Shown one piece after another: positions 7,959 to 59,287 of a stretch of DNA of 64,000 bases. Source of the DNA: a virus. How positions within the stretch are numbered: position 1 is the stretch's first letter; each line of letters opens with the position of its first letter. The stretch covers positions 1 through 64,000 of the IMG/VR virus record IMGVR_UViG_3300045988_035487. One strand, 5' to 3'. The translations under genes and the position numbers were made by a program. The notes beneath the pieces were generated by a model, which saw only the letters and a list, made by a program, of their open reading frames with translations, did no database searches and had not been told where the DNA came from.

Positions 7959-8046
7959 GGAGAGTTGGGTGAGTGGCTTAAACCAGTCCCCTGCTAAGGG
8001 ACCGAACCTCAAAAGGGTTCCGCTGGTTCGAATCCAGCACTCTCCG
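7959..8046 (+). tRNA. tRNA-Ser(GCT), type II
   Basis: Acceptor GGAGAGT/ACTCTCC. Anticodon stem GTCCC/GGGAC with loop CTGCTAA. Long variable arm CGAACCTCAAAAGGGTTCCG. T arm GCTGG-TTCGAAT-CCAGC. Confidence 0.85.
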
Positions 8047-8098
8047 CGCTGGCTAATAAGAGTTTGCGAAAATCATTATTAACCTAATTATTAGAATT

Positions 8099-10182: not shown

Positions 10183-10265
10183 GCCGACTTCGCATAGTGG
10201 TTGATTGCACGTGACTTGTAATCACGAGAGGAAACTCCACGTCAGTTCGAATCTGACAGTCGGCT
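10183..10265 (+). tRNA. type II (long variable arm, 3-bp D stem) tRNA with apparent anticodon TGT
   Basis: Acceptor GCCGACT/AGTCGGC. D arm GCA-TAGTGGTTGAT-TGC. Anticodon stem CGTGA/TCACG with loop CTTGTAA. 14-nt variable arm containing a GAG-GAAA-CTC hairpin. T arm GTCAG-TTCGAAT-CTGAC. 83 nt in total. Confidence 0.55.
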
Positions 10266-10352
10266 CGATTGTAATCCTAGATGATTACAGTTAGATTATA
10301 AATTACCACACAGAGATGCTTATTGAATTTAACATGTTAAATGTAAGTGTAA

Positions 10353-11669: not shown

Positions 11670-11703
11670 ACTGAAATGATTAGTATTGTATTAGGAACAG
11701 TAC

Positions 11704-12453
11704 ATGGGTAAGAAATTGACCGAGGAGGAAGTAATATCTAGGTTTAGAGATGTTCATGGAGACAAATACGACTATAGTAAAGTCGTCTATGTAGATATGA
11801 ACTCTAAAGTAACCATTATATGTCCGGAGCATGGAGAGTTTGAACAAACTCCCGCCAAACACATTAATAGGAAGCATGGATGCCCTAAATGTAAGGGTAC
11901 TAAACTAAGAAACCACTTCTCTTCTACTACCGAAGAATTTGTAAGGAAGGCTGTTAGCAAACATGGCGACAGATATAACTACTCTAAAGTAGAGTATGTT
12001 AATTCTAGAACTAAGGTTTGTATCATGTGCAAAAAGCACGGGGAATTTTACGTAACTCCAGATAACCATCTAAAAGGACGTGGATGTCCTAGATGCAAAC
12101 AGTCTCGTGGAGAGAACATGATTGAAGCGTGGTTACAACGAAATAATATTCGTTATGAACGACAATTCGTATTGATTAACCAGGAGATAGACAGGCCCTC
12201 ACATAGATTAGTTATTGATTTCTTTGTAAAGCATAAAGGACGTCAGTATTTCATAGAGTACGATGGGGAACAGCACTTCAGCCCAACCTATAGATTCTAT
12301 GATAGCATGGCTGATTTCCAAATGCAGCAATACAGGGACCAGCTACTTAATGATTTCTGTGATAGACATAAGGATGCAGTTACCTTGATAAGGGTGAATT
12401 GTAGACAATGTGAAGCAGAGATAACTCATACATTAAGTAGCACAATAGCATAA
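11704..12453 (+). CDS. triple zinc-ribbon repeat protein with C-terminal restriction-endonuclease-like (DUF559/Vsr-like) domain
   Basis: The motif C-x-HGEF...GCPxCK occurs three times. The C-terminus (ERQFVLINQEIDRPSHRLVIDFFVKHKGRQYFIEYDGEQHF) resembles a PD-(D/E)XK homing or Vsr-like nuclease. Confidence 0.45.
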   Translation: MGKKLTEEEVISRFRDVHGDKYDYSKVVYVDMNSKVTIICPEHGEFEQTPAKHINRKHGCPKCKGTKLRNHFSSTTEEFVRKAVSKHGDRYNYSKVEYVNSRTKVCIMCKKHGEFYVTPDNHLKGRGCPRCKQSRGENMIEAWLQRNNIRYERQFVLINQEIDRPSHRLVIDFFVKHKGRQYFIEYDGEQHFSPTYRFYDSMADFQMQQYRDQLLNDFCDRHKDAVTLIRVNCRQCEAEITHTLSSTIA

Positions 12454-12457
12454 TTTT

Positions 12458-16524: not shown

Positions 16525-17332
16525 TATGGAGAAATTGAGTGCAGATGCGTTACGTTTAGCCTTAGTAACAGCATCTATGGAGTACTATAAGAAGTACGTA
16601 GAAGGCAATCAAGACTTTGACAATTCCGAGCAAATCAAAGAGGAGCTTGATAAGTTGGAAGCAGCAGGTTTAGGTAGAACTAAGAATGCAGAAACTCTTA
16701 GGACTATTCTCGAGTCTAAGAAGTATAAGTCAGCTTTAGGTCCAGAGAAATTAGACCTGAAGAAGGTTAACGAAATAACATCCTGGATTAAAGAATCGTA
16801 TCCTGATGCACTGGTTGTAACTTACGAGGATTTCTTTGCAATCCTGAAGAAGTACAATTTGTATTGTGGTCCAATATCGGCCTTCAGCGGATTCATTCCA
16901 AGTGAGAATGTGTCACAAATAGCAAAGGCTTCTAACGCTTTGAACTCTTTAAATCTTAACTACGTCAGTTGGGTTGAAGCTGCGAGAATAGATTCAAGAA
17001 TGTCTAAGGACATGACCAAACGGCTTGTTGAGTATTTCTCTAGATTCCCATTTGTATTCAAAGGTATTGACCGTGGTTATCAGTACATGAGGTCTATAGG
17101 TGGAAGTTATAAGGAGGAAGATTACCTACATCTTGGCACCTCATATCTAGACCATAGTGCTTGGTTAATTGCCGCGCCTTATGATACTATGGAGAATAAT
17201 ATTCGCATAGAAATCTTCTCTAAAGCTGAAGAAGACCGTAAAAGAAGGTTGGAAGACCCAATAGTATTTAGGGCTACCAAAATAGGTATTGTTATCGTGT
17301 CTATGTGGGGTGGTTGCAGAACACCTCTTTAG
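16499..17332 (+). CDS. hypothetical protein, paralog family member 1 of 3
   Basis: Shares the motifs L(E/K)AAGLG..KNA, YxGxIPxENVxxIxK and IxIVSMWGG with ORFs 18730 and 21614. Confidence 0.55.
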   Translation: MILKNIYHSMEKLSADALRLALVTASMEYYKKYVEGNQDFDNSEQIKEELDKLEAAGLGRTKNAETLRTILESKKYKSALGPEKLDLKKVNEITSWIKESYPDALVVTYEDFFAILKKYNLYCGPISAFSGFIPSENVSQIAKASNALNSLNLNYVSWVEAARIDSRMSKDMTKRLVEYFSRFPFVFKGIDRGYQYMRSIGGSYKEEDYLHLGTSYLDHSAWLIAAPYDTMENNIRIEIFSKAEEDRKRRLEDPIVFRATKIGIVIVSMWGGCRTPL

Positions 17333-17379
17333 GAATGACTATTAGTGTTTGACTATTAGTATTCTAACCACTGCTCCAT

Positions 17380-17462
17380 GCGGTTGTAGTGTAAAGGAGG
17401 GCACATCACTAATTTTAGTATGCGCACAAGTGATAGATTGGGTTCGATTCCCGACAGCCGCT
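17380..17462 (+). tRNA. tRNA-like gene with expanded (18-nt) anticodon loop; possible intron-containing tRNA
   Basis: Acceptor GCGGTTG/CAGCCGC. D arm GTGT-AAAGGAGG-GCAC. T arm TTGGG-TTCGATT-CCCGA. The anticodon stem ATCACT/AGTGAT encloses TAATTTTAGTATGCGCACA, so no canonical 7-nt loop can be assigned. Confidence 0.45.
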
Positions 17463-17494
17463 CACCCTGAACCCTGTAATTCTAATCCTATAAG

Positions 17495-17746
17495 ATGTTT
17501 GGAAAGAAACAATCAGCCGAACCGGCTAAAGTAACAAGTACCTCACTAGCCGAAGAATCAGCTAAGATTATTGATGTATTTGAGAAAGCTGTTACCAATC
17601 TTAAAGAGGTAGCATCTAAAGCTCAAGCAGAGAAAGAGGTTAGAGAACAAGAGATTATCGAATTACAAACTGAAGCTGCAAACCTTGAAGCAGTTTCTAA
17701 CAAAGCAACAGCCATGGCCGAGAAGATTGGTGGGTTGCTATCATAA
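17495..17746 (+). CDS. hypothetical coiled-coil protein
   Basis: 83-aa ORF. Confidence 0.4.
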   Translation: MFGKKQSAEPAKVTSTSLAEESAKIIDVFEKAVTNLKEVASKAQAEKEVREQEIIELQTEAANLEAVSNKATAMAEKIGGLLS

Positions 17747-17750
17747 CATT

Positions 17751-18215
17751 ATGGACAAAATCAGAGACGTATCAGAAATTGATTTCAAAGTAGAAGAAGT
17801 AATGAAAGCTAAATCTTTCAATGACTTCGTGAACGGAAATGTAGAGAAAGCTTTCTATTTGGGCTTCTTTAGAAATGAATTGCAACAACCTCTATCTGTT
17901 GCTATGCAAATTAGAGGTGATGAAGGCATAGCCTTAGTAAAGAGTTTTGACGAAGCAATGCAGAAGGCTAGACCTTATGTAGAAGAAATGTCTGCTATAG
18001 CTGATGATGCTATGGCTAAAGAGGAGTTCACAATGTTAGATGTAGTTAATGAAGTCTCTGACAAGGTTAACTACAAACAGGAGGAAGACAAATTCTATGT
18101 CATCTTTATCTTAGGTATGTGGGTTAAGCACCTTATTGATGAAGATGTCATATCCGAAACTGAAGAAGATGAGGATGATGAGGATTTTGTTGAGAATCCT
18201 AATGCCGACGCATAA
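17751..18215 (+). CDS. hypothetical protein with acidic C-terminal tail
   Basis: Start moved to the internal ATG at 17751 to remove the overlap. Ends EEDEDDEDFVENPNADA. Confidence 0.45.
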   Translation: MDKIRDVSEIDFKVEEVMKAKSFNDFVNGNVEKAFYLGFFRNELQQPLSVAMQIRGDEGIALVKSFDEAMQKARPYVEEMSAIADDAMAKEEFTMLDVVNEVSDKVNYKQEEDKFYVIFILGMWVKHLIDEDVISETEEDEDDEDFVENPNADA

Positions 18216-24404: not shown

Positions 24405-24478
24405 GGTCTAGTAGCTCAGTAGAATAGAGCGTCCCTCTCCTAAAGGGAAGGTCACGAGTTTGAATCTCGTCTGGACCA
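24405..24478 (+). tRNA. tRNA-Arg(CCT)
   Basis: Acceptor GGTCTAG/CTGGACC. D arm GCTC-AGTAGAATA-GAGC. Anticodon stem TCCCT/AGGGA with loop CTCCTAA. T arm ACGAG-TTTGAAT-CTCGT. Confidence 0.85.
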
Positions 24479-44599: not shown

Positions 44600-45739
44600 A
44601 TGTTAGTAATTAAGAGAGACAAAAAAGTAGAACCTTTCGACGTTAATAAGATTGATGCTGCAATTACTAAGGCATTTAACGCTGTTAACGAGCCAATTGA
44701 TTCTGATATTCTTCAGGATATTAAAGATGAGTTGTATGTTAACAATATAGTTTCAGTTGAGGAGCTTCAAGACCAGTTAGAGAAAGCTCTTATGGCATGT
44801 GATTATTATGATGTTGCCAAGGCATTCATCTTGTACAGGCGTAAAAGGGCAGAGAGCAGGGCTTTAAATGAAAAGAAACAATTCATTAAAGACTATGCTA
44901 AAGCCAAGAATGCCGCAACTGGTAGTAAATACGATGCTAATGCTAATGTTACCGAGAAGAACATTGTAACCTTAAATGGAGAATTGTTCAAAGGTGATGT
45001 TATTAAGGTAAATCGTGCAATTCTTACTGATAAAATCAGAGAGTTATATGGAGAGGAGCTAGCTAAGGAATATATCCGTATGCTGGAACAACATTTACTT
45101 TATAAGCATGATGAAACATCGATTATGCCCTACTGCGTGGCTATCACTATGTATCCCTTTCTATTGGAGGGGTTACAGCCAATTGGAGGTTTGTCTGCCA
45201 GACCCAAGAACCTGGATTCTTTCTGTGGCATGTTCGTTAATCTGGTATTTGCGATTAGTTCTCAATTTGCAGGTGCAGTAGCAACTGGAGAGTTTCTAAT
45301 GTACTTTGATTACTTTGCTCGTAAAGAGTGGGGTGATGATTACTGGAAACGTCCAGAGGAAATGGTTGACAAACACAGAAATATTGACAAGATGTTAGAG
45401 CAGAAGTTCCAGCAGATTGTATATTCAATCAATCAGCCAGCAGCTGCTCGTAACTTCCAATCAGTATTCTGGAATATCAGTTATTTTGATAAGAACTACT
45501 TTGAAGGTATCTTTGGAGAGTTCTATTTCCCAGACGGTACACAACCTCAATGGGAATCTCTTAGTTGGTTGCAGAAGAAATTTGCTAAATGGTTTAATGA
45601 GGAACGTACTAAGTGTATTTTGACATTCCCTTGGAATTTCGATGGGGAATTAAAACCTTTGTTAATTGACTTGGAACTCCTAGCATTCATAGTAATACTA
45701 GGACAACAGGGGGCAAGCAACTTCAAGTGTGCAGCCTGA
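44600..45739 (+). CDS. nrdD: anaerobic ribonucleoside-triphosphate reductase NrdD, N-terminal part (ATP-cone + first half)
   Basis: N-terminal ATP-cone (VIKRDKKVEPFDVNKIDAAITKA). The ORF ends in a stop, and the C-terminal half resumes at 46634. The last residues are probably insertion-encoded. Confidence 0.7.
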   Translation: MLVIKRDKKVEPFDVNKIDAAITKAFNAVNEPIDSDILQDIKDELYVNNIVSVEELQDQLEKALMACDYYDVAKAFILYRRKRAESRALNEKKQFIKDYAKAKNAATGSKYDANANVTEKNIVTLNGELFKGDVIKVNRAILTDKIRELYGEELAKEYIRMLEQHLLYKHDETSIMPYCVAITMYPFLLEGLQPIGGLSARPKNLDSFCGMFVNLVFAISSQFAGAVATGEFLMYFDYFARKEWGDDYWKRPEEMVDKHRNIDKMLEQKFQQIVYSINQPAAARNFQSVFWNISYFDKNYFEGIFGEFYFPDGTQPQWESLSWLQKKFAKWFNEERTKCILTFPWNFDGELKPLLIDLELLAFIVILGQQGASNFKCAA

Positions 45740-46633
45740 CAGACTAAATACAGAGGACTTTAATGCATGGTGTGTGAACATAATGGATTAAGGTGTGCGA
45801 TAGTCGGAACTGTATGGTAACATACAGAGGGGAATTGAAGCATTCCCCCGTTTATTAAGTATGTCCATTTGGATTAGTTTCTATCGGGAATAAGTTGTAC
45901 CTTTGTCTCATTAAGTGAAACAATTAACAACTTTATAACTATGGAAACTAATGACAGAATTTGTTGCATATGTGGGGCTAGTGTTGGTAACGCACTGGCA
46001 GAGTAAGTAAATTCAAAGGAGATGGACAGTATTACTGTAGAAAGCACTATTTACAAATGTACAGACATGGAGAGATTTCTCAATTCACTCAAAAGGACGC
46101 TAATGAGTGGAGAGATAACATCTGTGTATGTAGAGGAGTACATGGTGAGGTCACTGGTGAAGTGACATTCGATTTAGACAAGCGAGAGTTCTTGCAACAG
46201 TTTAAAATTTACATTAGTAGTCAAGGTTACGCAGTAACTAAGACTGATGGTAAAACTCGTCTAATTCATAAGATTCTGACTGAAACAGAAGGTTATGATG
46301 CTAAGACCGTAGTAGACCACATTAATGGAAACAGACTGGACAATAGAATGGAGAATCTTAGGGTAGTATCACAAGCAATTAACGTAGTAAACAAGCACTA
46401 CGGTAAAGTTGTGGGAGTTAGTTATCACTCTAATAGAAGGGATGGTAAGTACTGGAGGAGCTACATTAAGAAAGATGGTAAATCTACAATCGAATGGTTT
46501 GATACAGAAGAGGAAGCTATTAAGAATAGGTTACTAAGAGAGATAGAAGTCTATGGTAAGCTAGTTAGTAGTGAGAATAAGAAATACGAATACTTAATAA
46601 ATCACCCGTCTGCCGAGGGCGGGGTGTAACAGA
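45740..46633 (+). mobile_element. insertion splitting nrdD: about 320-nt structured leader plus HNH homing endonuclease ORF (group I intron or free-standing HEG)
   Basis: Lies between the two nrdD halves and contains an HNH ORF in a different frame. Phage nrd genes are often interrupted by group I introns or HEGs. Confidence 0.6.
46057..46629 (+). CDS. HNH homing endonuclease (HNH + AP2-like DNA-binding region)
   Basis: Motif DHINGNRLDNRMENLRVVSQAINVVNKHYGK. Located inside nrdD. Confidence 0.7.
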   Translation: MYRHGEISQFTQKDANEWRDNICVCRGVHGEVTGEVTFDLDKREFLQQFKIYISSQGYAVTKTDGKTRLIHKILTETEGYDAKTVVDHINGNRLDNRMENLRVVSQAINVVNKHYGKVVGVSYHSNRRDGKYWRSYIKKDGKSTIEWFDTEEEAIKNRLLREIEVYGKLVSSENKKYEYLINHPSAEGGV

Positions 46634-47671
46634 ATGGTCGAAACTGTGGCATTGCTTACTGACGGTGAAGACGTCAAGGATACTGAATGGGCAGATTACA
46701 CTGCTGAAATGTATAGTAAAGGACACTCGTTCTTTACTTATATGTCCGATAGTCCTGATTCCTTATCTTCCTGTTGCAGACTTCGTAATGAGGTTACTGA
46801 TAATCAATTCAGTTATTCTCTTGGAGCTGGTGGTATTGCTACTGGTAGTAAGTCAGTAATGACCTTAAATATCAATAGGTTAGTTCAGGATGCAGTTAAT
46901 AATGGATATGATATGATTGAGTATTTGCGTGAGAATGTGAAGAAAGTTCATAAGTTCCAAACAGCATATAATGAATTGCTTAAAGACTATTTAAAAGACG
47001 GGTTGCTTACTGTATATACAGCTGGATTCATTGATATGAAGAAGCAGTATTTGACTATAGGTGTTAATGGAGTTATTGAGGCTGCGGAGTTCTTAGGAAT
47101 CCCAGTTAATGATAATCCAACTTATAGAGAGTTTATGCAATCTATCCTTAAAACTATCAGTGATGAAAATCGTAAAGCGAGAACTAAGGAGTTAATGTTT
47201 AACACAGAATTTGTTCCAGCAGAGAACCTTGGGGTTAAACATGCTAATTGGGACAGGAAAGCAGGTTATGTAGTTCCTAGAGATTGCTATAATAGCTATT
47301 TCTATGCTGTTGAAGACACATCTCTTACCGTACTTGACAAGTTCAAATTACATGGCAAGGAATATGTACAATACTTAGACGGAGGTAGTGCATTGCATAT
47401 GAATCTCGATGAACATCTTAGTAAGGAACAGTATCGTAACTTGTTGAGAGTGGCAGCAGTCAATGGTACTAATTATTTCACATTTAATATTCCAAATACT
47501 ATTTGTAATGATTGTGGACATATTGATAAGAGGTATCTCAAGGAATGTCCAAAATGTGGGAGTAAGAACGTTGATTATGCTACTAGAGTTATTGGTTATT
47601 TGAAACGTATTAGTAACTTTAGCCAAGCAAGGCAAGAGGAAGCTAGTAGAAGATTTTATACTCATGCTTAA
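46634..47671 (+). CDS. nrdD: anaerobic ribonucleoside-triphosphate reductase NrdD, C-terminal part (glycyl-radical domain)
   Basis: SSCCRL motif, C-terminal Zn site CNDCGH...CPKCGS, and glycyl radical motif RVIGYL. Confidence 0.7.
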   Translation: MVETVALLTDGEDVKDTEWADYTAEMYSKGHSFFTYMSDSPDSLSSCCRLRNEVTDNQFSYSLGAGGIATGSKSVMTLNINRLVQDAVNNGYDMIEYLRENVKKVHKFQTAYNELLKDYLKDGLLTVYTAGFIDMKKQYLTIGVNGVIEAAEFLGIPVNDNPTYREFMQSILKTISDENRKARTKELMFNTEFVPAENLGVKHANWDRKAGYVVPRDCYNSYFYAVEDTSLTVLDKFKLHGKEYVQYLDGGSALHMNLDEHLSKEQYRNLLRVAAVNGTNYFTFNIPNTICNDCGHIDKRYLKECPKCGSKNVDYATRVIGYLKRISNFSQARQEEASRRFYTHA

Positions 47672-53620: not shown

Positions 53621-55009
53621 ATGCAATTAAATCAATCACCTAAAATCAATATTAACTATTGTGCTAAGATTGTGGAAATCCACGATTTTACACCACACCC
53701 AAACCCTAAGTGCGAGCGTCTTAAATGTGCTCATATAGACGGATATACTATTTCGGTCAGTAAAGATACAGAACCTGGAATGTATGTATATTTCCCTATA
53801 GGATGTGCTATTGACTATTCTTTCTTGTCAGCTAATAATCAGTTCAGACATGTCGAGCTGAATGCTGACAAGGAAGCAGCACCTGGGTATTTCGAAGATA
53901 ACGGAAGAGTGAAGATTATTAAGTTGCAGGGCCATGTTTCAGAAGGATTTATTATGTCTATAGAGTCCATTACTAAATGGATAAGCTCTCTTGGACATAC
54001 CGAAGCTGTAACTGGAATAGATGCCGGCACTGAATTTGATAGGGTAGGAAACCTGTTTATTTGTAAGAAGTACGTAGTAAAGAATAGAACTTCTGGCTCT
54101 AATAATAAAACTAGAACTGGTAAGCAGCCTAAAGGGTTGAGCAAGTTAGTTGACAATCAGTTTAGATTCCACTACGATACTATTCTTATTAAGAAGTGTC
54201 CACGGATAATTAAGCCAAATGATATTATTAGTATTACTAGTAAGGTCCATGGCACGTCTGGAATATCAGCAGATGTGTTGTGCAAAAGGCAATTGAAGTG
54301 GAAAGACAAGGTGGCTGGTTGGCTTACCTATGTGCCTGACACTGCGTATGACTATCTGTGGTCCTCTAGAAAGGTAGTAAAGAACCAATATTATAATAAG
54401 GAAGTTAGTGAAGGTTACTACGGCTGTGATGTGTGGGGAGAAGCTCATAAAGTATTACAGCCATTTTTAACTAAAGGATTAACTCTCTATTATGAAATTA
54501 TAGGCTGGCTTCCTACTGGAGGAGCAATTCAGTCAATGGGAGGTAAAGCTTATGATTATGGTTACGATATGCCAATATACGACCCTACTACTCAAACTAC
54601 TCCATATAAGTATAATGTGCATTTTGGTATCAGAGTGTACCGTATTACTTATACTAATCCTGACGGAATAGTGTATGAATTTAGTGCTAGACAAGTGCAA
54701 CAATGGTGTAAAGATAAGGGCCTCACTCCGGTAACAGAACTATATTATGGATATGCGAAGGATTTATATCCGGATATATCTGTATCTGAACACTGGAATG
54801 AGAATTTCATACAAAGATTAGCCGAGGACAAGAATTTCTTCATGGAAGAACTATCTCCAGAATGTCACAATGATGTGCCACATGAAGGTATAGTAATTCG
54901 TATAGAAGACGGTTTGTCTGGGGCATATAAGTTAAAATGTAATAGATTCTTATTTGCAGAATCTAAAGCATTAGATAAAGGTGAAGTTGATATAGAATCT
55001 GACCAATGA
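53621..55009 (+). CDS. RNA ligase (Rnl2-like nucleotidyltransferase) with N-terminal extension
   Basis: Motif I KVHGTSG (compare T4 Rnl2 KIHGTN). Motif IV EGIVIRIEDG. Motif V AYKLKCNRF. Confidence 0.5.
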   Translation: MQLNQSPKININYCAKIVEIHDFTPHPNPKCERLKCAHIDGYTISVSKDTEPGMYVYFPIGCAIDYSFLSANNQFRHVELNADKEAAPGYFEDNGRVKIIKLQGHVSEGFIMSIESITKWISSLGHTEAVTGIDAGTEFDRVGNLFICKKYVVKNRTSGSNNKTRTGKQPKGLSKLVDNQFRFHYDTILIKKCPRIIKPNDIISITSKVHGTSGISADVLCKRQLKWKDKVAGWLTYVPDTAYDYLWSSRKVVKNQYYNKEVSEGYYGCDVWGEAHKVLQPFLTKGLTLYYEIIGWLPTGGAIQSMGGKAYDYGYDMPIYDPTTQTTPYKYNVHFGIRVYRITYTNPDGIVYEFSARQVQQWCKDKGLTPVTELYYGYAKDLYPDISVSEHWNENFIQRLAEDKNFFMEELSPECHNDVPHEGIVIRIEDGLSGAYKLKCNRFLFAESKALDKGEVDIESDQ

Positions 55010-55380: not shown

Positions 55381-55699
55381 GTTCGCTAAAGAAATATTTA
55401 AGAAGGCAGACGAAGGAGCTATCTCTAAGGAGGTAGCTCTTGACCTGCTGACTGTCTATGACTTATTACCAATAGCTCCTTGGATAGAACTTCCTACTTT
55501 CATGGATAGCTATGATTACTTTGATAGGTATTCAACAATCAAGTATATGAACTGCTTAGACATAGCCGATTTCAAGGATGAAGATGGTAATGTATCACAG
55601 TATACCCAATTTCCTGACCTAACGTGGGATGAAGCTATTAATGAACTATATGAGTTCGTTAAAGAGAAGCAAGTAATTGGTTGTGTGTATGATTGGTGA
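55307..55699 (+). CDS. hypothetical protein
   Basis: 130-aa ORF overlapping the previous one. Start uncertain. Confidence 0.4.
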   Translation: MMEDLDKEIRTLESMKEKLNQFKAEFAKEIFKKADEGAISKEVALDLLTVYDLLPIAPWIELPTFMDSYDYFDRYSTIKYMNCLDIADFKDEDGNVSQYTQFPDLTWDEAINELYEFVKEKQVIGCVYDW

Positions 55700-56453
55700 T
55701 TTTAAATTTTATGAAGTAGGCGGTAAGATTAGAGATGAGTTCTTGGGTCTTATCAATAAGGATGTTGACTATGTAGCTGTGCCTACAGAGGCAGTCTATA
55801 AAAAAATTCACCCATGTGAAGCTCAGCTCAGTCCAGCCCAGCTAATGTTCAAAGCATTAAAGAGTTACTTAGAGGGGCAGAAGTTTGAAATCTTCTTAGT
55901 AACTCCAGAGTGCTACACTATACGTGCTAAATTCCCAGAAGGATATAAGTATCAAGGTGTAGCAGATTTTGTAATGGCTAGAAAGGAAGTAGGATATGTT
56001 CCAGGTACTAGGACTCCTATAGTAGAACCAGGAAATCTGTATGATGATTTATCACGCAGAGATTTCACTATCAATGCTATGGCTAAAGACCCCGATACTG
56101 GAGAAATCATTGACTACTTTTATGGTAAGCATGATATAACGAATGCTTTGATAAGAACTCCCCTCGACCCTGTAACAACATTCGATGATGACCCTCTTAG
56201 GATACTTAGAGCCATTAGGTTTGCGGTTACTAAGAGATTCACAATAGAGCAAACAACTTGGCAAGCTATGGTGTTATATGATTATGATTCTAAAATGCCA
56301 GTAGTGTCAGAGGAGAGAATTAGAGAGGAACTGATTAAGTGTTTTAGATGCAATACCATTAGAACCTTAACATATCTTGATTACCTTCCAAGACTTAGAG
56401 ATTATATCTTTAGTAAGACCAATTTATGGCTTAAGCCAACTAACGAGAAATGA
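55677..56453 (+). CDS. cca: tRNA nucleotidyltransferase (CCA-adding enzyme family), minimal head/neck form
   Basis: GGKIRDEFLG...DVDYV (GGxVRD...DxD), RRDFTINAM and DPLRILRAIRFA are class II CCA/poly(A) polymerase signatures. Confidence 0.75.
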   Translation: MVVCMIGDFKFYEVGGKIRDEFLGLINKDVDYVAVPTEAVYKKIHPCEAQLSPAQLMFKALKSYLEGQKFEIFLVTPECYTIRAKFPEGYKYQGVADFVMARKEVGYVPGTRTPIVEPGNLYDDLSRRDFTINAMAKDPDTGEIIDYFYGKHDITNALIRTPLDPVTTFDDDPLRILRAIRFAVTKRFTIEQTTWQAMVLYDYDSKMPVVSEERIREELIKCFRCNTIRTLTYLDYLPRLRDYIFSKTNLWLKPTNEK

Positions 56454-56848: not shown

Positions 56849-57102
56849 TGGAAACATTTGAGTTCTTAGTAACATCAACAGCAATGGTAACGCTTCAAGA
56901 GCATATAAAGATACAAGCTCAAGATTTAGACGATGCCATTGCAAAGATAGAAGATAGAGATTACTATGAGGAAGATGGAGAAATTATAGGCAAAGAGTAT
57001 GAAATCATTGATTATGATAAGGTACATGAGATAGCTGACTGGAAAGATGTTGTCAAATCTAAACCTAAATCTGAAGAATCTTTATGGACAAGCGAGTATT
57101 AA
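56845..57102 (+). CDS. hypothetical acidic protein
   Basis: 85-aa ORF. Confidence 0.4.
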   Translation: MMETFEFLVTSTAMVTLQEHIKIQAQDLDDAIAKIEDRDYYEEDGEIIGKEYEIIDYDKVHEIADWKDVVKSKPKSEESLWTSEY

Positions 57103-58004
57103 TAATTTGTAGAGGTATTCAAGGTTCAGGTAAATCTACTTGGGCTAAACAATGGTGTCACGAAGACCCAGAGCACAGAGTAAGATTTAACAATGATGAT
57201 ATTCGTAACATGTTAGGTGATTACTGGGTTCCTACTAGGGAGAAGCTAGTTACTGAAGCTAAAGCTAATATGATAACGTTTGCTTTGATTAAAGGTTACG
57301 ATGTAGTAGTTGATAATATGAATCTGAATCCCAAAGAGGATGAATGGATTAGAACTCTATGTGCTAATATAGAGAAGGACAAGGGAATACATGTTGATAT
57401 AGAGTACAAGGATTTCTGGACCCCTGTTGACGAATGTATTCGCCGCGATGCTAAAAGAGAACATCCTATAGGTGAGAAGGTTATTAGGCAAACTTGGAAG
57501 CGTTATAAGGACTTCATAATCCATGAGGAAATTATGGCAGCCAAAGCTAAGTCATTAGTTCAAGATACTAACCTACCAGCAGCAATCATAGTAGATATGG
57601 ATGCAACTGTATGTTTAAATACTAGTGGTCGTCCTTTCTACGGAGAAGGTGCAGCTGAAGGTATGCTTACTGATGAGCCTATTACTCCTGTAATTGAGCT
57701 TATTAGAAACTTCTGTGATAATTATCCAGCTAAGTTAATAATTCTAACTGGTAGAGAGGATACTCCTGAAGTTCGTAAAGCTACGGAACAGTGGTTAGAG
57801 AACAATTGGTTGCATCCTGACATACTTCTCATGCGTCCTGCTAAGAGCTTTACTGCTGGTCCTATATGTAAGAAGAAACTGTATGAGGACAATATCAAAG
57901 GCAAGTTCTATATACCTTTCGTACTTGAAGACAATTGTAAGTGTGTGGAGATGTGGAGAAATGAAGGCTTGATTTGTCTACAACCGAATGAGGGTAAGTT
58001 CTAA
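57084..58004 (+). CDS. pnk: polynucleotide kinase-phosphatase (T4 Pnk-like)
   Basis: N-terminal P-loop kinase ICRGIQGSGKST. C-terminal HAD phosphatase IIVDMDATVC (DxDxT). Confidence 0.7.
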   Translation: MDKRVLIICRGIQGSGKSTWAKQWCHEDPEHRVRFNNDDIRNMLGDYWVPTREKLVTEAKANMITFALIKGYDVVVDNMNLNPKEDEWIRTLCANIEKDKGIHVDIEYKDFWTPVDECIRRDAKREHPIGEKVIRQTWKRYKDFIIHEEIMAAKAKSLVQDTNLPAAIIVDMDATVCLNTSGRPFYGEGAAEGMLTDEPITPVIELIRNFCDNYPAKLIILTGREDTPEVRKATEQWLENNWLHPDILLMRPAKSFTAGPICKKKLYEDNIKGKFYIPFVLEDNCKCVEMWRNEGLICLQPNEGKF

Positions 58005-58677: not shown

Positions 58678-59287
58678 TTTTGACCAAATACTAGACATTC
58701 TGGAATTTAATAATTCAGATGAGTTCTATTTCTTGCAAATTATACAACGCAAGAAAGACGGCTGTGTTACTGATACTGGTAATAACGGATATAGGACTGT
58801 TAAAACTTACTATATATTCAGTAGGGAACAGCTAGAGCGCAAAAGAGCTAAAATTACTGAATTGTGCCAGAGCAATCATGCAAGAGCATACATTACCTTG
58901 AATAGACGTAATGCTGAAGAAGTGGCATGTACTGCTATACAAGAGTATGCCAAACTAATCCAAGAAGGCAACTGCTATCAAGGATATCGCATTTGGGATT
59001 CATCTTGTGGGCATACTAGAGCTAGAGGCTACAAGCCACTATGGGTTGTGGATGTTGATAGTAAGGACGAGAACTATCTTAACACAATCATAGAAATTGT
59101 TAATAGTTGTAGAGGTGCACAAGACATCAAAGTTAAACATGTAATTCCAACTGCACATGGTTATCATCTTATAACGATAGGGTTTGATACTAATCAGTTC
59201 GCTCAACAGCTAGCTATTAGGAATCTGGATTCTATAGATATACAGAAAGATAACCCAACGTTGCTGTATTTCGATACAGCTGATTAA
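58664..59287 (+). CDS. hypothetical protein
   Basis: 207-aa ORF. Confidence 0.5.
   Translation: MVIDNFDQILDILEFNNSDEFYFLQIIQRKKDGCVTDTGNNGYRTVKTYYIFSREQLERKRAKITELCQSNHARAYITLNRRNAEEVACTAIQEYAKLIQEGNCYQGYRIWDSSCGHTRARGYKPLWVVDVDSKDENYLNTIIEIVNSCRGAQDIKVKHVIPTAHGYHLITIGFDTNQFAQQLAIRNLDSIDIQKDNPTLLYFDTAD

Follow-up and report, generated by a model that had tools for sequence, protein, structure and literature searches.

What is the role of a phage tRNA-like gene whose anticodon loop spans 18 nt rather than 7? The gene lies at 17380..17462 on the + strand of a 64,000-nt stretch of DNA (positions 1 to 64,000 of IMG/VR record IMGVR_UViG_3300045988_035487, hereafter the window), which is the contig end of an uncultured gut phage. 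An earlier note on this DNA had proposed a small tRNA intron, among other explanations. Comparison of orthologous loci suggests a different answer. We tentatively favour a non-decoding, selectively maintained phage tRNA mimic, which would be neither a decoding tRNA nor an intron-containing precursor. In the literature searched and to our knowledge, no phage tRNA gene has been described that is conserved and has an anticodon loop of 18-19 nt with an invariant core.

The element at 17380-17462 is a genuine tRNA-like gene. It reads GCGGTTG TA GTGT AAAGGAGG GCAC A TCACT AATTTTAGTATGCGCACA AGTGA TAGA TTGGG TTCGATT CCCGA CAGCCGC T and forms a full cloverleaf on the + strand. The acceptor stem (17380-17386 paired with 17455-17461) is followed by the D arm (17389-17404), the anticodon stem (17406-17410 paired with 17429-17433), a variable loop of 4 nt (17434-17437), the T arm (17438-17454) and the discriminator (17462). 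The Rfam tRNA model RF00005 matched at all model positions 1-71 with 38.5 bits (gathering score 29; E-value 2e-6 in a 900-nt search and 1.5e-4 in a whole-window search). The minimum free energy (MFE) fold is the cloverleaf, with the 18-nt loop open and unstructured. These two results confirm the acceptor, D and T arms, which the earlier note had judged good. U8 and A14 are present, as are GG in the D loop and TTCGATT in the T arm. RF00005 was the sole Rfam match at the locus, with none to tmRNA or tRNA-like structure families. The gene shares the seven-pair acceptor stem, four-pair D stem, five-pair anticodon stem and T arm of canonical tRNA, and it lies within a 23-gene phage tRNA region. Like the neighbouring phage tRNAs, it does not encode CCA. 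Within the first 24.5 kb of the window, ARAGORN with default settings found 23 tRNA genes but missed this one. Because standard tRNA finders miss it, similar elements are probably under-counted in viral metagenomes.

The enlarged anticodon loop AATTTTAGTATGCGCACA occupies 17411..17428 (+), is predicted to be unstructured and extends to 19 nt in some lineages. In the RF00005 alignment an 18-nt insertion stands at the place of the 7-nt anticodon loop of the model. The canonical arrangement of U33, an anticodon at 34-36 and a purine at 37 in a 7-nt loop is not found in a loop of 18-19 nt. About 11 extra nucleotides and no assignable canonical loop had been noted before, and both observations were borne out. 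No U33/purine-37 register adjoins the stem. The earlier loop string was correct in being enlarged, but its quoted start, TAATTTT..., counted twice a T that is already the last base of the helix. Similarly, the helix given as ATCACT/AGTGAT does contain six pairs, and these are the five-pair anticodon stem plus a Watson-Crick 26:44 pair.

To learn how the element varies, it was recovered from 82 loci in IMG/VR and metagenome collections by neighbouring-protein and sequence-pattern queries. Most of these loci are near-identical gut-phage contigs. Homologues of a downstream 176-aa protein led to a further three lineages, making lineages 1-4 with that of the window: L019/L093, L214/L220 (176-aa protein 82% identical) and L217-L219 (63% identical). 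The L019 RNA is GTGACTA TG GTGT AAAGGAAG GCAC A TCACT TAATTTTAGTATGCACACA GGTGA TAGA CTAGG TTCGATT CCTAG TGGTCAC A. The L214 RNA is GCAACTG TA GTGT AAGGGAAG GCAC A TCACT AATTTTAGTATGCATATA AGTGA TAGA TTGGG TTCGATT CCCAG CGGTTGC A, and L220 is the same except for the loop, AGATTTTAGTATGCACATA, and a T discriminator. The L217 RNA is GCAGCTA TG GTGT AAAGGAAG GCAC A TTATC TAATTTTAGTATGCACACA GATGA TAGA CTAGG TTCGATT CCTAG TAGCTGC T.

Covariation was examined in eight distinct orthologous sequences from the four lineages, whose downstream 176-aa proteins are 63-100% identical. Standard pairs occupy all of the pair cells (168/168; 21 stem pairs in 8 distinct sequences), although 19/42 stem columns are variable (alignment A4). 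Both sides have changed in 8/21 pairs (acceptor stem, four; anticodon stem, two; T stem, two). L217, with TTATC/GATGA, is an example of compensation in the anticodon stem. The compensatory score was matched by 0/500 column shuffles, and slid structures also came nowhere near it. Clearly, the homologues do not reveal a decayed pseudogene, the finding that the earlier note had said would refute its reading.

Conversely, the loop is conserved as sequence rather than as structure. Its core TTTTAGTATGC (17413..17423, +; alignment A4 and a loop census) is identical in 82/82 loci, with six loop variants in all. The core is preceded by two or three variable bases (AA, AG, TAA or AGA) and followed by R-Y-A-Y-A (GCACA, ACACA, ATATA or ACATA), so that the stem-adjacent anticodon is not conserved. 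The loop begins with A-A, or with U-A in lineages 2 and 4, and C or U stands at position 37 in the stem register. Outside the loop, 6/7 acceptor pairs vary among the orthologues, and the discriminator switches between A and T even between the close relatives L214 and L220. The adjoining canonical orthologous tRNAs (Gln, Met, Leu) have nearly unchanged acceptor stems. Because the core is invariant while the stems vary, these alignments indicate that the loop matters as sequence. In its 18-19-nt loop, its lack of a conserved anticodon and its free discriminator and acceptor stem, the gene departs from canonical tRNA.

The distribution of the element was examined with several further searches. 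A body pattern with a free gap of 8-28 nt returned only insert-bearing copies from IMG/VR. When the 2-kb region and the 83-nt gene were compared by blastn with 50,697 phage records, no useful match or DNA similarity emerged. A metagenome scan for the loop together with the T loop found the same lineages and variants only, plus about 60 chance matches. The element was absent from 185,579 genomes of bacterial and archaeal species representatives, where three chance matches occurred. One unrelated metagenome contig (L067), with the hairpin CACAC/GTGTG around ATTTTAGTATGGAGAA and a T loop, was rejected since neither ARAGORN nor Rfam recognised a tRNA. A 16-codon frame running from an AUG in the loop to a shared TGA was rejected as well. 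The conserved part of this frame is merely the T arm, its length is equal in all lineages because there are no indels, and it has no independent support.

The genomic slot that holds the element is also present in more distant relatives. A leader CACTGCTCCAT (17369..17379, +) adjoins the RNA on the 5' side, as seen by flank comparison of the window, L214, L222 and L229, and it is also present in lineages whose slot holds another occupant. The 3' trailer, CACCCTGAACCCTGTAAT... (17463..17494, +), extends to the start codon of the next open reading frame (ORF) and is the most widely kept flank of the slot. A CCTTGAAYCTTGTAA-like trailer was found in 9/9 lineages compared. The downstream 83-aa ORF (17495..17746, +) keeps its synteny with the element in all lineages, and an ORF of 150-230 aa and RNase H come after it. 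Searching with a profile of the downstream protein extended the comparison to lineages in which it is 53%, about 45% and about 30-39% identical. All of them share one layout: the end of an upstream ORF, leader, occupant, trailer CCTTGAAYCTTGTAA, an ORF of 76-83 aa, the query protein and RNase H. The leader is of two types, CACTGCTYCAT or CAAGCAGCCAKCAT.

The occupants themselves differ widely. In the distant relatives L229-L233 the slot holds a normal class II tRNA-Leu(UAA). In L224/L225, among the intermediate relatives, it holds a bare acceptor/T-arm minihelix placed straight after a stop codon (MFE -19.2 kcal/mol, z -5.6). L221 (MFE -34.4) and L222/L226-L228, likewise intermediate, have tRNA-like RNAs that lack the D arm, and the L221 and L222 elements were not called tRNA by ARAGORN or Rfam. 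The D-arm-less element at about 7800-7815 of L222, and likewise those of L226 and L228, carries an 8-nt palindrome in which TACGCGTA changes to TACATGTA with the palindrome kept. Lineages with a non-canonical occupant have a separate tRNA-Leu(UAA) 1-2.5 kb upstream, except L221 and L224/L225, for which no tRNA-Leu(UAA) was found in the stretch fetched. In the window genome the separate upstream copy is deleted. What is common to all occupants is the acceptor/T-arm module and the flanks. RNase P, 3' processing and the CCA enzyme need no more than this module as a substrate, and transcript processing is therefore what the forms of the slot have in common. Judged from the varied occupants, decoding appears to be dispensable there. 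An intact D arm, a covarying anticodon stem and an invariant loop core occur in lineages 1-4 only, a pattern that points to selection for more than processing in these four.

How might such an RNA act? The gene lies in a co-directional tRNA/ORF transcription unit, from which its RNA would be excised by RNase P and a 3' processing nuclease, as for the neighbouring tRNAs. CCA would then be added, which is presumed because the phage encodes its own CCA-adding enzyme. The excised RNA would fold as a normal L-shape, and its anticodon arm would display the 18-19-nt single-stranded loop. The invariant core UUUUAGUAUGC would thus be the active, sequence-specific ligand on a stable scaffold. The likeliest partner would be a protein that normally engages anticodon loops, such as a host anticodon nuclease or some other defence factor aimed at tRNAs, and the RNA would act as its bait or keep it occupied. 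A decoy tRNA, one of the alternatives in the earlier note, would be compatible with all of the findings. As a secondary effect, excision of the element would set the ends of the flanking mRNAs, and this definition of mRNA ends would be the sole property in common with the degenerate slot elements of sister lineages. The RNA would presumably not be aminoacylated. Variation in the acceptor stem and discriminator flips are as expected if no synthetase reads the acceptor end. The three synthetases that ignore the anticodon, for Ala, Ser and Leu, depend on G3:U70, a long variable arm or A73, and the orthologues either lack these features or do not hold them fixed.

Phage tRNAs have been found to counter anticodon nucleases (PMC10264068, PMC11464382, PMC11555353), and they are now viewed as weapons in a conflict over the host tRNA pool. 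A role of the present element in such a conflict is suggested by circumstantial evidence, namely the swapping of tRNA alleles, the 6-nt loops in L169 and L225 and the heal-and-seal kit of the phage. An undescribed class of mimic, in which the 11-nt UUUUAGUAUGC in the loop of a processed tRNA scaffold titrates or misdirects a host anticodon-loop factor, is possible but doubtful. The version in which the RNA is nuclease bait is likewise held with less confidence than the mimic in general. Two stretches of the core come close to anticodon loops: AUUUUAG to that of Lys(UUU), and UUUAG-UAU-GC, allowing for three inserted bases, to that of Leu(UAG). Such likenesses would suit a bait but are far from proof. 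If a fixed 11-base ligand does replace the anticodon in a folded tRNA, it would represent a new type of RNA countermeasure or regulator and a natural counterpart of the 'tRNA scaffold' of RNA engineering.

Several observations weigh against a mimic. No single anticodon loop is closely copied by the core, the best likenesses being AUUUUAG to Lys(UUU) and UUUAG..GC to Leu(UAG). One identical loop variant is shared by 65/82 loci, and four lineages are a shallow sample. Furthermore, valine alone has no canonical tRNA in the roughly 37-kb tRNA zone of this lineage and the examined flanks, so that a decoding role is possible. In relatives this zone begins with Arg(gcg), some 12 kb ahead of the window start, and it ends with Arg(cct) at 24405. 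A further 7 kb upstream of Arg(gcg) contained no tRNAs in the relatives.

The possibility of an intron was examined directly. ARAGORN with intron search forced the window gene to tRNA-Val(cac) with a 13-nt intron at 32/33, i(33,13), a model in which position 33 is A, position 26 is missing and the variable loop has 3 nt. Its calls for the orthologues conflict (Val cac i(33,13), Val aac i(34,14) and Ile tat i(31,13)). Enumeration of bulge-helix-bulge motifs (a 4-bp helix between two 3-nt bulges) yielded two weak candidates for the window, none in L019 and none common to two orthologues. Rfam intron families gave no match in 17000-17900 at E up to 10. The ribozyme core of a group I intron (P3-P9) takes about 200 nt or more, and this class was rejected as the insert is only 11-14 nt. 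Pfam scans of the window, which covered about 50 large + strand ORFs and 51 smaller ones, detected no tRNA-splicing endonuclease (EndA/TSEN) family. The unspliced loop would be represented by the k-mer CACTAATTTTAGTATGCGCACAAGTG, and candidate splice junctions by CATCACTCACAAGTGAT, CATCACTACACAAGTGAT and CATCACTGCACAAGTGAT. Removing AATTTTAGTATGCA from L019 and L217 leaves a canonical loop, UUCACAG (U33, CAC, A37). The homologous 14-nt removal leaves a 6-nt UCACAA in the window lineage and UUAUAA in L214. Other removals in the window lineage place A or G at position 33, and L214 yields UAU and L220 CAU instead of CAC. No removal of 11-14 nt in any variant yields one canonical loop in all lineages. 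The extra sequence fits no recognisable known intron class. The small tRNA intron of the earlier note is therefore not supported, given the unconserved motif, the missing group I signal, the inconsistent ARAGORN calls, the unconserved stem-proximal CAC and the lack of an endonuclease domain in the scanned window ORFs.

A less familiar form of splicing still has to be weighed against the mimic. The gene could encode a pre-tRNA with a new kind of intervening sequence of 13-14 nt, whose loop would be cut twice by an endonuclease and then healed and sealed by the polynucleotide kinase-phosphatase (Pnkp) and RNA ligase of the phage, most likely to give tRNA-Val. The gap at valine in the tRNA zone of the lineage is the best argument for decoding, and the UUCACAG product in L019 and L217, the Val calls of ARAGORN in 3/4 lineages and the phage genes for RNA ligase, Pnkp and CCA-adding enzyme agree with it. 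The identity that valyl-tRNA synthetase recognises is dominated by the anticodon, and free variation of the acceptor stem would suit such an enzyme. Yet an intron-containing Val(CAC) is countered by the replacement of the stem-proximal CAC with TAT in L214 and CAT in L220, and the 6-nt product in the window lineage, the discriminator flips among close relatives, the missing bulge-helix-bulge motif and the absence of an EndA domain from window ORFs of at least 45 aa also speak against it. A CAC anticodon would serve GTG alone, which makes up 15% of the Val codons in the window, and the four-codon boxes of this phage are otherwise served by U34 tRNAs. Sister lineages without the odd tRNA have no Val tRNA in the 16-kb loci fetched. 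The supposed intron is better conserved than its exons, which is unusual for protein-spliced introns. The conserved 'enigmatic' tRNA introns of Lak megaphages (PMC6784885) lend some support, but those are about 93 nt long at predicted position 37/38. Overall, we consider splicing unlikely. If it did occur, this would be a form of tRNA splicing unknown in bacteria or their viruses, the first tRNA of a bacterial virus with a short insert removed by an endonuclease and the virus's own Pnkp and RNA ligase, and it would tie phage RNA-repair enzymes to routine tRNA maturation.

Alternatively, the element may be a processing signal in cis and nothing more ('tRNA punctuation'), at which RNase P and the 3' nuclease split the upstream mRNA from that of the 83-aa ORF. 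The slot, leader and trailer CCTTGAAYCTTGTAA are kept across nine lineages whatever the occupant, which has been reduced to an acceptor/T-arm minihelix in L224/L225 and has lost the D arm in L221 and L222. However, acceptor and T arms would suffice for this purpose, and the invariant D arm, the compensated anticodon stem of L217 and the 82-locus core are left unexplained, so this too seems improbable. A decaying tRNA pseudogene with an insertion in its anticodon loop would account for the rejection by default tRNA finders and for the degenerate elements in the same slot elsewhere. It is very unlikely, since all stem cells are paired, eight pairs are compensatory, the insert is better conserved than the stems and no insert-free allele was found among matching IMG/VR contigs. 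The covariation and the invariant core therefore rule out simple decay. An unspliced decoding tRNA, in which the expanded loop serves frameshifting, suppression or other recoding, had been among the earlier alternatives. The core does hold three overlapping U33-type 7-mers (AUUUUAG for Lys, UUUUAGU with UUA for ochre, and UUUAGUA with UAG for Leu), and the phage has a CUA suppressor-type tRNA. Known functional expanded anticodon loops are 8-9 nt long, but here the loop is 18-19 nt, no closing helix surrounds any core 7-mer, and canonical Lys and Leu tRNAs are already there. Ochre suppression would be harmful because TAA is the main stop, ending 30/49 large ORFs in the window (TAG, 5/49). We give recoding very little credence. 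The least probable explanation is that the conserved motif works in the DNA, as a promoter or a site where protein binds, or that it guides antisense pairing with a phage mRNA. TAGTAT is similar to a -10 hexamer, but no promoter-like site was called on the + strand, where neither promoter nor terminator was found in or near the gene. Matches to the core with up to 2 mismatches number 25 in the window against 34 expected, which is no enrichment, and neither the core nor the whole loop has a second copy there. The single strong complement in the window, at 59004-59025, can pair with the loop and two flanking bases on either side (18 Watson-Crick and 2 G-U of 22), but it encodes a conserved peptide, SSCGHTRARGY, and synonymous variants in lineage 1 break a central G-C pair while the loop is unchanged.

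The element was compared with known systems. The short protein-spliced introns of archaeal and eukaryal pre-tRNAs resemble the window case in that 11-14 extra nucleotides fall in the size range of the shortest introns and lie in the anticodon loop, and the phage genome has genes for an RNA ligase and a kinase-phosphatase. They differ in that the window case lacks a bulge-helix-bulge, an endonuclease gene (window scans) and a consistent product. Archaeal and eukaryal introns are usually recognised by structure, whereas the sequence of the window insert is invariant. Several tRNA-like RNAs do not decode, including the tRNA-like domain of tmRNA, viral tRNA-like structures, YrlA and B. cereus tRNA-Other. 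As in the proposed mimic, tRNA shape is kept in these for processing or protein recognition while decoding is lost, and the retention of the acceptor/T-arm module alone in sister lineages is reminiscent of tmRNA. Unlike them, the window RNA keeps four arms and has no mRNA-like domain, no long Ro-binding stem and no viral 3'-terminal position. Known RNA countermeasures of phages include nuclease-resistant tRNAs, the T5 tRNAs that act against PARIS and retron effectors, and pseudo-ToxI decoys. These are phage small RNAs as well, and the tRNA region of the element shows allele turnover and is accompanied by RNA repair genes. They are, however, replacement tRNAs with 7-nt loops or mimics of antitoxin repeats, whereas the window RNA has an enlarged loop. 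We know of no tRNA with an enlarged bait loop. Like the present phage, the Lak megaphages come from the gut, have many tRNA genes and include a suppressor tRNA among them (Devoto et al. 2019, PMC6784885). Their tRNA inserts are highly conserved between cohorts and have no known mechanism; one is listed in Supplementary Table 6 as Tyr GTA, intron 37-129 (PMC6784885). They are the one published precedent for conserved inserts in phage tRNAs and share with the window the over-long tRNA genes. Lak inserts leave a normal anticodon at a canonical location, while the window insert of 11-14 nt leaves no conserved anticodon, so a Lak-type intron was rejected as being of another size class and position.

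Three genes that bear on tRNA biology form a cluster for RNA repair and maturation 36-40 kb downstream of the tRNA-like gene, all on the + strand. An RNA ligase of the DRB0094/OB-fold type is encoded at 53621-55009 (phrog_968, 8e-42; TIGR02306 at 1e-6, which is well below the curated cut-off; weak PF21189). The CCA-adding enzyme follows at 55677-56453 (PF01743 and phrog_24229), and the T4-type Pnkp at 57084-58004 (PF25109 with PF13671, and phrog_505). These genes are context for the element, and their products may act on its RNA. The large ORFs of the window are all on the + strand, and their products include DnaB, primase, PolA, ThyX, NrdD, RNase H and adenylosuccinate synthetase.

The tRNA region is subject to change. 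Genomes L047-L053 are 97-99% identical to the window elsewhere but have differing Lys, Asn, Pro, Ala, Phe and Ile tRNA alleles in the part corresponding to 800-5350, which looks like cassette-like turnover of tRNA genes. One Asn tRNA in this comparison carries a long extra arm. The tRNA-Ala(tgc) at 4213-4286 has TAGTGTAAA, CACATCACT and AGTGA, that is, the D arm and the whole anticodon stem, in common with the odd tRNA, and other genomes have a standard Ala allele at this position. The shared segments suggest paralogy or gene conversion. BLAST of L001 against the window placed the junction of a 3.35-kb deletion, relative to close relatives, at 17304..17310, and tRNA-Met(cat), tRNA-Leu(taa) and small ORFs lie in the DNA that the window lacks. 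A tandem direct repeat of two copies, (A/T)TGACTATTAGT(G/A)TT, stands shortly before the tRNA-like gene, at 17335-17363, and is absent from the L019 lineage, where the tandem TGACTATTAGTRTT repeat upstream of the gene is not conserved. Relative to L001, 758 bp are found in the window only (11700-12457), with a zinc-finger ORF (11704-12453; DUF4379/DUF723) that is possibly a mobile endonuclease-like gene.

Several other features were observed in passing. The first bases of the window include, at 14-47, the Nextera transposase adapter GTCTCGTGGGCTCGGAGATGTGTATAAGAGACAG, a library artefact at the contig end, and the small ORF call at 12-209 passes through it. The tRNA at 549-621 has the anticodon CTA (ARAGORN 'Pyl') and is of the amber-suppressor type, and the window ORFs fit the standard code. 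The ARAGORN tRNA-Arg(tcg) at 7986-8062 (-) is antisense to tRNA-Ser(gct) at 7959-8047, has mismatched stems and is in all likelihood spurious. In the anaerobic ribonucleotide reductase NrdD, an HNH endonuclease ORF (46057-46629) separates the ORF for the N-terminal part (44600-45739) from that for the C-terminal part (46634-47671), an interruption that looks like an intron or homing-endonuclease insertion. The 84-nt tRNA-Thr(tgt) at 10183-10266 has a short additional stem-loop in its variable region, an uncommon trait among Thr tRNAs, and a similar form occurs in L225. L225 also carries, at 3836-3911, a tRNA with the 6-nt loop GTCATG. In L169, an allele of the upstream 'Arg(gcg)' tRNA at 758-828 has a loop of 6 nt, TTACAA, equivalent to a Val UAC loop that lacks position 32.

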